Of a stretch of 64,000 nucleotides of DNA, positions 13,599 to 14,122 are shown in pieces (within the stretch, counting starts at the first letter, position 1; every line of letters begins with the position of its first letter). The DNA comes from a bacterium. GTDB taxonomy: Bacteria; Chloroflexota; Anaerolineae; Epilineales; Epilineaceae. Below the pieces are notes generated by a model. It saw only the letters and a list, made by a program, of their open reading frames with translations, ran no database searches and had not been told where the DNA came from. A program made the translations under genes and the position numbers. The stretch is from contig QEVT01000002.1 of the NCBI GenBank assembly GCA_003576755.1, forward strand, positions 346 through 64,345. The letters are read 5' to 3'.

Positions 13599-13961
13599 AT
13601 GTTCCAGACCGAGTTCGAGTTCACGCTGCCCATGGGCTATCTCGACGACGAGGGCACGCTCCACCGCCAGGGCACCATGCGCCTGGCGACGGCGGGGGAC
13701 GAGATCCTGCCGCTCAAGGATCCGCGGGTCCAGGGCAACCAGGCGTACCTCGTCGTCATCCTGCTCTCGCGGGTGATCACGCGGCTGGGCTCGTTGGGGC
13801 ACATCAACCCCAAGGTCGTCGAGGGGCTCTTCGCCGCCGACCTGGCCTACCTGCAAGAGTTCTACAACGAGATCAACCGCACCGGCAAGGCGGCCGTGCC
13901 GGCCGTGTGCCCCAAATGCGCCCACGAGTACCGCGTGGAGCTCAACGGCGTGGGGGGGTGA
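13599..13961 (+). CDS. Tail assembly chaperone, P2 gpE-like (120 aa), with a C-terminal CPKC zinc-ribbon-like motif
   Basis: It sits immediately after the tube gene. The pattern (GTMRLATAGDEILPL...LLSRVITRLG...GLFAADLAYLQEFYNEIN) resembles gpE-type chaperones. The ORF ends GVGG-stop on a G7 run. Confidence 0.7.
   Translation: MFQTEFEFTLPMGYLDDEGTLHRQGTMRLATAGDEILPLKDPRVQGNQAYLVVILLSRVITRLGSLGHINPKVVEGLFAADLAYLQEFYNEINRTGKAAVPAVCPKCAHEYRVELNGVGG
13952..13958 (+). other. Candidate -1 programmed ribosomal frameshift site (G GGG GGG heptamer immediately 5' of the gpE-like stop codon)
   Basis: The zero-frame codons are GTG GGG GGG TGA. A -1 slip on the seven Gs reads GTG ATC GGC TAC, which is exactly the downstream ORF frame. 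This mirrors P2 E/E+E' and lambda G/GT. Confidence 0.45.
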
Positions 13962-14122
13962 TCGGCTACCCCCTCGGGGCGCTGTACGAGGAGGTAGCCT
14001 TCATCGCGTACCACTTCCACTGGTCGCCCGAGGCGATCATGGAGTTGGAGCACCCGGACCGGCGGCGGTGGGTAGAGCAGATCTCGAACATTCATCAGCG
14101 CATGAACGAGCAAACACGATGA
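13958..14122 (+). CDS. gpE'-like extension ORF (54 codons); translated alone from GTG or as the -1 frameshift extension of the chaperone
   Basis: GTG at 13958 overlaps the upstream TGA (GTGA). FHWSPEAIMELEHPDRRRWVEQI resembles the short P2 GpE' family motif (W-P ... M-L ... W). The stop overlaps the next ATG. Confidence 0.55.
   Translation: MIGYPLGALYEEVAFIAYHFHWSPEAIMELEHPDRRRWVEQISNIHQRMNEQTR

Follow-up and report, generated by a model that had tools for sequence, protein, structure and literature searches.

A phage-tail-like extracellular contractile injection system (eCIS) of lineage-II type, encoded on contig QEVT01000002.1 of the GenBank assembly GCA_003576755.1 (Chloroflexota, Epilineaceae), very probably makes two proteins from one tail-assembly-chaperone gene by programmed -1 ribosomal frameshifting. 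The window, i.e., the whole stretch of 64,000 nucleotides (nt) that was analysed, carries this gene directly after the tail tube gene: the 0-frame product is a protein of 120 amino acids (aa), a candidate P2 gpE-like tail assembly chaperone (open reading frame 1, ORF1; 13599..13961, + strand), and the frameshift product is predicted to be a 174-aa fusion of this protein with a second domain, DUF6760, encoded in the -1 frame. Databases list the pair as a "hypothetical protein" and a "DUF6760 protein", i.e., as the two separate small genes that the original prediction, made from the window alone, had expected annotation to report.

The anatomy of the site is simple. ORF1 starts with the ATG at 13599 and ends ...GTG GGG GGG TGA; its seven G's (G7, 13952..13958, + strand) form the slippery heptamer G GGG GGG in the X XXY YYZ phase of ORF1, and the 0-frame stop TGA (13959..13961, + strand) adjoins them, exactly as the original prediction had read the sequence. 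The -1 frame stays open from 13907 to 14122, and after a slip it would read GTG (13958) ATC GGC TAC..., i.e., VIGYPLGALYEE.... Translated from the last G of G7, it gives VIGYPLGALYEEVAFIAYHFHWSPEAIMELEHPDRRRWVEQISNIHQRMNEQTR, an extension of 54 codons plus stop (13958..14122, + strand). Around the slip the predicted fusion is ...ELNGVGG-VIGYPLGALYEEVAF..., with the junction GVGG-VIGYPLG and the predicted junction peptide VELNGVGGVIGYPLGALYEEVAF... / VELNGVGGVIGYPLGALYEEVAFIAYHFHWSPEAIMELEHPDR; length, start and junction all agree with what had been proposed. The version of the slippery site with silent changes in the heptamer is GGAGGCGGC. Two more elements flank the heptamer: a predicted stimulatory hairpin (13964..13999, + strand), which follows after a 5-nt spacer, and a Shine-Dalgarno (SD)-like GGAG (13937..13940, + strand) lying 11 nt 5' of it, a possible upstream stimulator.

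The G run alone proves nothing, because G7 is depleted and not enriched in the window (8 runs versus 21 expected from shuffles); it is the conserved arrangement in relatives that exceeds chance. The run is spanned without a gap or substitution by contigs of four independent metagenome runs and by contigs of four RNA-labelled runs, three of which are declared transcriptomic or metatranscriptomic. Short RNA-derived contigs from three wastewater or activated-sludge transcriptome runs (X26, X28, and X32) belonging to different studies cover the chaperone pair (13599-14200), so that the eCIS operon appears to be transcribed in situ.

With regard to the relatives, a word search with ORF1 scored at least about 8,000 proteins, and at 50% identity the family falls into 1,227 clusters with E<=1e-3, 689 of them with E<=1e-10. 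Nearly all of the homologues are 120-121 aa long and end with ...GG or ...GGx. From a one-genome-per-species collection with at least ~600 matches, 80 loci were compared, representing Chloroflexota, Acidobacteriota, Actinomycetota, Cyanobacteriota, Nitrospirota, Pseudomonadota, Bacillota, Gemmatimonadota, Verrucomicrobiota, and Spirochaetia, together with 12 archaea (Methanosarcina, Methanoperedens, Methanoregula, Methanotrichaceae, ANME-2, and Hydrothermarchaeota). Cultured carriers include Streptomyces albiflavescens, Methanosarcina sp. T3, Paenibacillus sp. HJGM_3, Mitsuaria sp. GD03876, and Okeania hirsuta. Purifying selection acts on both frames (60-85% identity), and DUF6760 lies in the -1 frame relative to ORF1 in 77 of the 80 loci. 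Three loci depart from this pattern. One (L041, around 2850-2856) has G6 in place of the G7 of its close relatives, and another (L073, from a Syntrophomonadaceae metagenome-assembled genome, around 2840-2900) has the GYP... motif in the +1 frame; judging from the naming of their contigs, these two are presumably long-read assemblies, and homopolymer errors are the likely cause. In the third (L061) the search did not find the second ORF, the locus being too divergent.

The slippery sequence is kept in the same loci. When the heptamers are read in the X XXY YYZ phase of ORF1 after aligning on the -1 frame protein, 76 of 79 sequences have an in-phase G-rich heptamer at one fixed position of the alignment: GGGGGGG in 29 loci, GGGGGAA in 27, GGGGGGA in 16, GGGGGAG in 2, and GGGAAAA and GGGGGGT in 1 each. 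Two further loci (L045 and L079) have G GGG GAA one codon upstream of the usual position, and among the archaea G GGG GAA is found in 11 of 12. In 73 of 79 loci the heptamer is followed by the 0-frame stop either directly (0 nt, 35 loci) or with 3 nt in between (38 loci). Conservation of the -1 frame protein sets in directly at the heptamer, and in 36 of the 79 loci no ATG, GTG or TTG is present in this frame from the preceding stop to the conserved GYP motif; the starts of the remaining loci mostly coincide with the heptamer's last base or lie 42 nt upstream. The conserved heptamer at the same position in homologous loci, to which the original prediction had looked, is thus present, and the patterns that it had set against itself, namely a downstream ORF that is in frame, absent, or served by its own ribosome binding site with no slippery sequence, are not what these loci have.

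Constraint at the RNA level was assessed by synonymous codon entropy, computed from a codon alignment of the 76 predicted fusions for columns with a conserved degenerate amino acid. Along the gene the entropy is about 0.6-1.0 of the maximum, and it collapses only at the heptamer and the two arms of the hairpin. In the heptamer, Gly119 is GGG in 99% of the sequences (entropy 0.05); in the 5' arm the values are 0.00 for Gly123, 0.10 for Tyr124, and 0.23 for Pro125; in the 3' arm they are 0.11 for Glu131, 0.10 for Glu132, 0.12 for Val133, and 0.24 for Ala134. Val133 is encoded by GTA, a codon rare in these GC-rich hosts, in 96% of the sequences, in high-GC and low-GC hosts alike.

The hairpin itself consists of the 5' arm GGCUACC-C-CCUCG (13964-13976), a 10-nt loop, and the 3' arm CGAGG-A-GGUAGCC (13987-13999). 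Its stem of 11-12 bp starts 5 nt 3' of the heptamer, and RNAalifold predicts it unaided. Across 79 sequences 97.1% of the cells are paired, and 5 pairs show compensatory changes; with the addition of seven IMG/VR loci and a twelfth pair, the paired fraction is 94.9%, and 6 pairs have compensatory changes, which amount to 27 cells. These changes replace G-C by A-U or U-A at the base of the stem, and C-G by G-C or U-A in its inner part. The observed values were not attained in any of 500 shuffles, and at slid positions 30-63% of the cells pair. The minimum free energy averages -18.6 kcal/mol, and the stem of the window reaches -21.5. Eight IMG/VR loci at 41-51% identity retain the cassette, with further compensatory changes.

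An SD-like GGAG or GAGG, a type of element proven to stimulate frameshifting from upstream in E. coli (PMC4066793), starts 9-22 nt 5' of the heptamer in 63 of 76 loci, versus 12% of background windows in ORF1. The codon at this element, Glu114, is GAG in 88% of the sequences, and its synonymous entropy is reduced (0.53); since the element also encodes a conserved Glu, it is counted only as a possible third element.

As for the proteins, the -1 ORF belongs to the Pfam family DUF6760 (PF20546; 62 bits versus a cut-off of 27), as do all of its 32 aligned relatives. The alignment of these 32 sequences matches P2 E' (L082:685-858) in hhalign with a probability of 91.4% and an E value of 9e-7, over the ...FHWPP.E...W... 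core; Phage_P2_GpE is matched by 5 of the 32 members and, weakly, by the -1 ORF of the window. An AlphaFold2 model of the DUF6760 domain has three helices, with a predicted local distance difference test score (pLDDT) of 91.7. ORF1 matches phrog_508, "tail assembly chaperone", at 1.7e-7, and 6 of 28 ORF1 homologues weakly match Phage_TAC_7. NCBIfam has no model for either ORF. Homology bears out the P2 E/E' pairing named in the original prediction for the E' part; ORF1 is chaperone-like but unmatched to P2 gpE. The broader claim of a P2-type -1 programmed frameshift is strongly supported by the frame, the heptamer, the hairpin, and the homology in relatives.

Homologues of ORF1 share the invariant residues His22, Cys104, and Cys107, with a near-invariant His109, which may form a zinc site, an unusual trait for tail chaperones. 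Some relatives have tandem duplications of ORF1 of ~250 aa (P0125 and a 269-aa ORF in L091), and a protein of this type is named "phage FluMu protein Com" in one source.

There are also natural fusions in a single ORF, and these are rare: 8 were found among the top hits of at least about 8,000 matches, P0122, P0124, P0126, P0131, P0133, and P0137 being among them. Their existence indicates that the fused protein is viable, and their rarity that selection nonetheless keeps the split. One of them, P0133 (L081, 1174-1698), is a 174-aa in-frame fusion annotated as "DUF6760 family protein", and its locus contains two sheath-tube pairs; in it the G run is lost and the hairpin arms AGCUACCCCCUG...CAGGAGGUAGCC are kept. 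An AlphaFold2 model of another, P0122, which is 71% identical to the fusion predicted for the window, has a pLDDT of 83.5 and shows a mixed alpha/beta domain at the N-terminus and three helices forming a domain at the C-terminus, joined by a linker of low confidence that coincides exactly with the shift site. In a Foldseek search of BFVD, this model has as its best matches T4-like "baseplate hub assembly" proteins, at E values of 1e-7 to 2e-5, as well as a "tape measure chaperone" at 6e-3 and, at 0.03 with a probability of 0.93, Mu FS-gp41, which arises by frameshifting in the chaperone gene of Mu. Against the PDB, Foldseek returned no significant match for the fusion model; the top TM-score was that of B. 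subtilis YqbN (3KLU; E 1.3), which we take to be an XkdN-like tail chaperone and use as a hint only. ORF1 and DUF6760 also found no match among PDB sequences, whether a single sequence or a profile served as the query. Family membership of S. coelicolor SCO4251 as a characterised homologue could not be confirmed; the literature describes this protein as one of unknown function, detected once in purified particles.

Beyond the observed anatomy, conservation, RNA-level constraint, and homology, we infer slippage, its efficiency, and a role in assembly along the following lines. Most ribosomes would end at the TGA of ORF1 (13599-13961) and release the 120-aa gpE-like chaperone. A minority would pause with G GGG GGG (13952-13958) in their decoding sites, held by the 11-12-bp hairpin (13964-13999) and possibly also by the SD-like GGAG 11 nt upstream; the Gly-tRNAs would then re-pair one base back, and the -1 frame would be read through the DUF6760 domain to 14122, giving the 174-aa fusion. 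By analogy with lambda G/GT and P2 E/E+E', the short form would coat the tape-measure-like protein, and the three-helix domain of the rare long form would bring the complex to the tube or hub, letting tube polymerisation reach the correct length.

Could the same sequences be explained in other ways? Two independent genes would need a start for the DUF6760 protein, by coupling or re-initiation at GTG 13958 or 13907, with the G run being a Gly-Gly motif or a weak SD sequence. Both GTG codons are indeed present in the window, Pfam and NCBI handle DUF6760 as a stand-alone family, the divergent lineage described below has a proper ATG at the EVAY motif, and in E. coli constructs G-rich runs can serve as SD sequences for low-level initiation in the -1 frame (PMC4066793). 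However, 36 of 79 loci lack any start in the open -1 frame before GYP, those starts that exist abut the G run with a spacing of 0-2 nt, which is too short for SD-directed initiation, and the protein is conserved right from the heptamer; moreover, the frozen synonymous sites, the covariation of the hairpin, and the fixed distance from heptamer to stop are left unexplained, so that this arrangement is very improbable. It is just as hard to credit transcriptional slippage, by which RNA polymerase would add one G and a fraction of G8 mRNAs would encode the fusion in frame. Polymerase can slip on homopolymer runs, but 27 loci have only five G's and one has GGGAAAA, too short for the slippage known in bacteria, while an in-phase heptamer followed by a hairpin after a 5-nt spacer is the geometry of ribosomal frameshifting. 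The contigs of the four RNA runs keep G7 with no insertion, although contigs hide rare variants. A third possibility is a faulty sequence or assembly, or else a recent frameshift that made a pseudogene of a single 174-aa gene. Homopolymers are error-prone and single-ORF versions do occur, if rarely; this explanation is effectively refuted by the same split in 77 of 80 loci from two domains and by a G7 identical in eight independent runs, and the purifying selection on both frames speaks against it as well.

Some observations weigh against programmed frameshifting at this site, the basis for which is comparative sequence analysis. On the protein side, ORF1 has no Pfam match above threshold, and hhalign found no match between the ORF1 alignment and P2 gpE, the diversity of the alignment being low (effective number of sequences, 1.4). 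The 302-aa ORF that follows has no tape-measure signature, and its slot is not always occupied by a tape measure. On the RNA side, the arms of the hairpin encode conserved residues (GYP and EEVA), so their conservation is partly at the protein level, and the covariation comes from few events, the sequence being so conserved. Last is the chemistry of the slip. G GGG GGG, G GGG GGA, and G GGA AAA are canonical motifs, but G GGG GAA, the commonest heptamer in archaea, is a non-canonical X XXY YYZ: the Glu-tRNA would re-pair on GGA with a G.U at the middle position, and a single-tRNA slip on the G_GGG tetramer is equally possible. In an E. coli study of heptamers, GGN codons in the A site were among the weaker shifters, with the all-purine versions the better of these, and G_GG.G_GG.U without a stimulator gave 0.018%; given stimulators, 55-61 of 64 heptamers shift (PMC4066793). 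The efficiency may consequently be low. Such a low efficiency would fit a chaperone ratio like that of lambda, 30:1 (PMC5009743).

The neighbourhood of the pair is that of an injection-system operon. The genes follow one another in the order Pvc16_N cap (10114-10995), sheath (11005-13152), gp19-type tail tube (13168..13593, + strand; Pfam Phage_T4_gp19, E 8.7e-48), ORF1, the DUF6760 -1 ORF, a 302-aa ORF, a CIS_tube plus LysM initiator, a VgrG-related gene, and a Phage_base_V spike (17120-17764). The tube gene is directly 5' of ORF1, with 5 nt between them, and the stop of the -1 ORF overlaps the start of the 302-aa ORF (14119..15027, + strand) in an ATGA, an overlap with the next gene found in 21 loci. 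This Ala/Arg/Pro-rich gene is a putative tape measure by position only: it has no match in Pfam, PHROG, or NCBIfam, its product has an ordered, charged C-terminal helix, and in other loci the gene in this slot encodes 140 to 558 aa. The longest G homopolymer of the window, G10 at 17296-17305, lies in the Phage_base_V spike gene. DUF6760 occurs in 7 of 41 related genomes (G000-G040) and in 0 of 14 control genomes, and a scan of 2.9 million IMG/VR contigs gave 10 loci only; such patchiness is what one expects of an accessory island, and phages essentially do not carry the element.

None of the literature found describes this site, in keeping with the original expectation that the recoding is not routinely annotated in eCIS loci: no publication was found that links contractile injection systems with frameshifting or that mentions DUF6760, and the chaperones mentioned in a recoding review and the GeneTack survey are all from phages. 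The site is an unannotated addition to the well-known class of -1 frameshifts in tail assembly chaperones, notable because it sits in a cellular injection system and because its nucleotide cassette is conserved across many bacterial phyla and archaea. The annotation of hundreds to thousands of eCIS loci would split one recoded gene, with the 174-aa product missing from protein databases. Lineage-II eCIS would be assigned their missing tail assembly chaperone, with the adjacent gene pointed to as the tape measure. Codon-optimising or refactoring such clusters for protein delivery or for production in a heterologous host would destroy the heptamer and the hairpin, and correct assembly would probably be lost. 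Few chromosomal -1 signals are conserved as nucleotide sequences in many bacterial phyla as well as in methanogenic or methanotrophic archaea, and the cassette offers a test case for one hairpin-plus-heptamer signal on both bacterial and archaeal ribosomes.

How does the system compare with those already known? Within the injection systems, Cis6/Afp6/Pvc6/Alg6 is a small, essential "spike plug" in lineage-I systems (PMC8894135, PMC8894136, PMC12546770), whereas afp6 and afp14 are absent from most lineage-II loci, which have instead conserved subtype-specific genes without known domains (Chen et al. 2019, PMC6899500). What the two have in common is their kind and gene position: each is small and helical, with ~55 aa, and is encoded after the tube genes and before the gene of the LysM tube initiator; spike plugs are free-standing genes, unlike the DUF6760 extension. 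No sequence match at E<=10 to Alg6, Pvc6, or the Cis6 of tCIS was found in the PDB with either the single sequence or the profile, and Foldseek of the DUF6760 domain gave no relevant match, a weak negative because short helical chains are hard targets. DUF6760 is therefore not classed as a Cis6/Afp6 plug: the position of the gene is similar, but no similarity to the solved plugs was detected. A bolder proposal, tentative and rather unlikely, is that DUF6760 is the lineage-II functional counterpart of the plug: the frameshift product would carry the chaperone/tape-measure complex into the spike-hub cavity, nucleate the tube, and possibly stay in the particle. On this view, a single ancient module would underlie both the plug of Afp/PVC/AlgoCIS and the E'/T extensions of phage chaperones, and bacterial and archaeal ribosomes would read the same RNA cassette.

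Outside the injection systems, the signal resembles that of E. coli dnaX, which is likewise tripartite (an SD-like element, a heptamer, and a hairpin) and is also cellular and not viral; at the eCIS site the GGAG lies 11 nt 5' of the heptamer, and the hairpin begins 5 nt 3' of it. In dnaX the heptamer is A AAA AAG and the frameshift yields a shorter product, and the role of the SD-like element is putative at the eCIS site. In terms of predicted fold, Mu gp41/FS-gp41 and T4-like hub assembly proteins (gp26-type, Pfam T4_baseplate) are the best matches of the fusion model, with TM-scores of 0.3-0.46, and the T4-like proteins are single ORFs of 250-270 aa.

The closest parallel is phage P2 (NC_001895; E, E+E', T), in which a small ORF likewise comes after the tube gene and is extended in the -1 frame by ~55 residues that lack a start of their own. 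The end of E+E' overlaps the start of T, as the -1 ORF overlaps the 302-aa ORF here, and the order of the tail genes, E, E+E', T ... D, matches that of the eCIS. The slippery site of P2 is reportedly T TTT TTG, as Christie and colleagues are said to have described in 2002. Here, in contrast, the site is G-rich with an immediate 0-frame stop and a strongly conserved hairpin, ORF1 has a conserved Cys/His motif, and the host system is an eCIS and not a phage.

The tail-chaperone frameshift of lambda and other long-tailed phages, reportedly the work of Levin in 1993 and of Xu, Hendrix and Duda in 2004, follows the same principle. In lambda gpG/gpGT and its counterparts, two proteins with a shared N-terminus are made by a -1 slip at a fixed ratio from a gene between those for the tube and the tape measure (PMC5009743), although the eCIS proteins have no sequence homology to G or T. 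In a divergent, low-GC lineage from IMG/VR (L091, 2590-2790, and also L092), lambda's G GGA AAG is found in phase; without a stop codon, the -1 frame leads into a DUF6760 ORF, which also carries an ATG of its own at the EVAY motif. There is no equivalent hairpin, and a 1,114-aa tape-measure-like ORF comes next. This arrangement fits a family-wide frameshift with signals that vary by lineage. Among phages the signals vary from one phage to the next, whereas in these injection systems a single nucleotide cassette has been kept in more than 10 phyla and in two domains of life.

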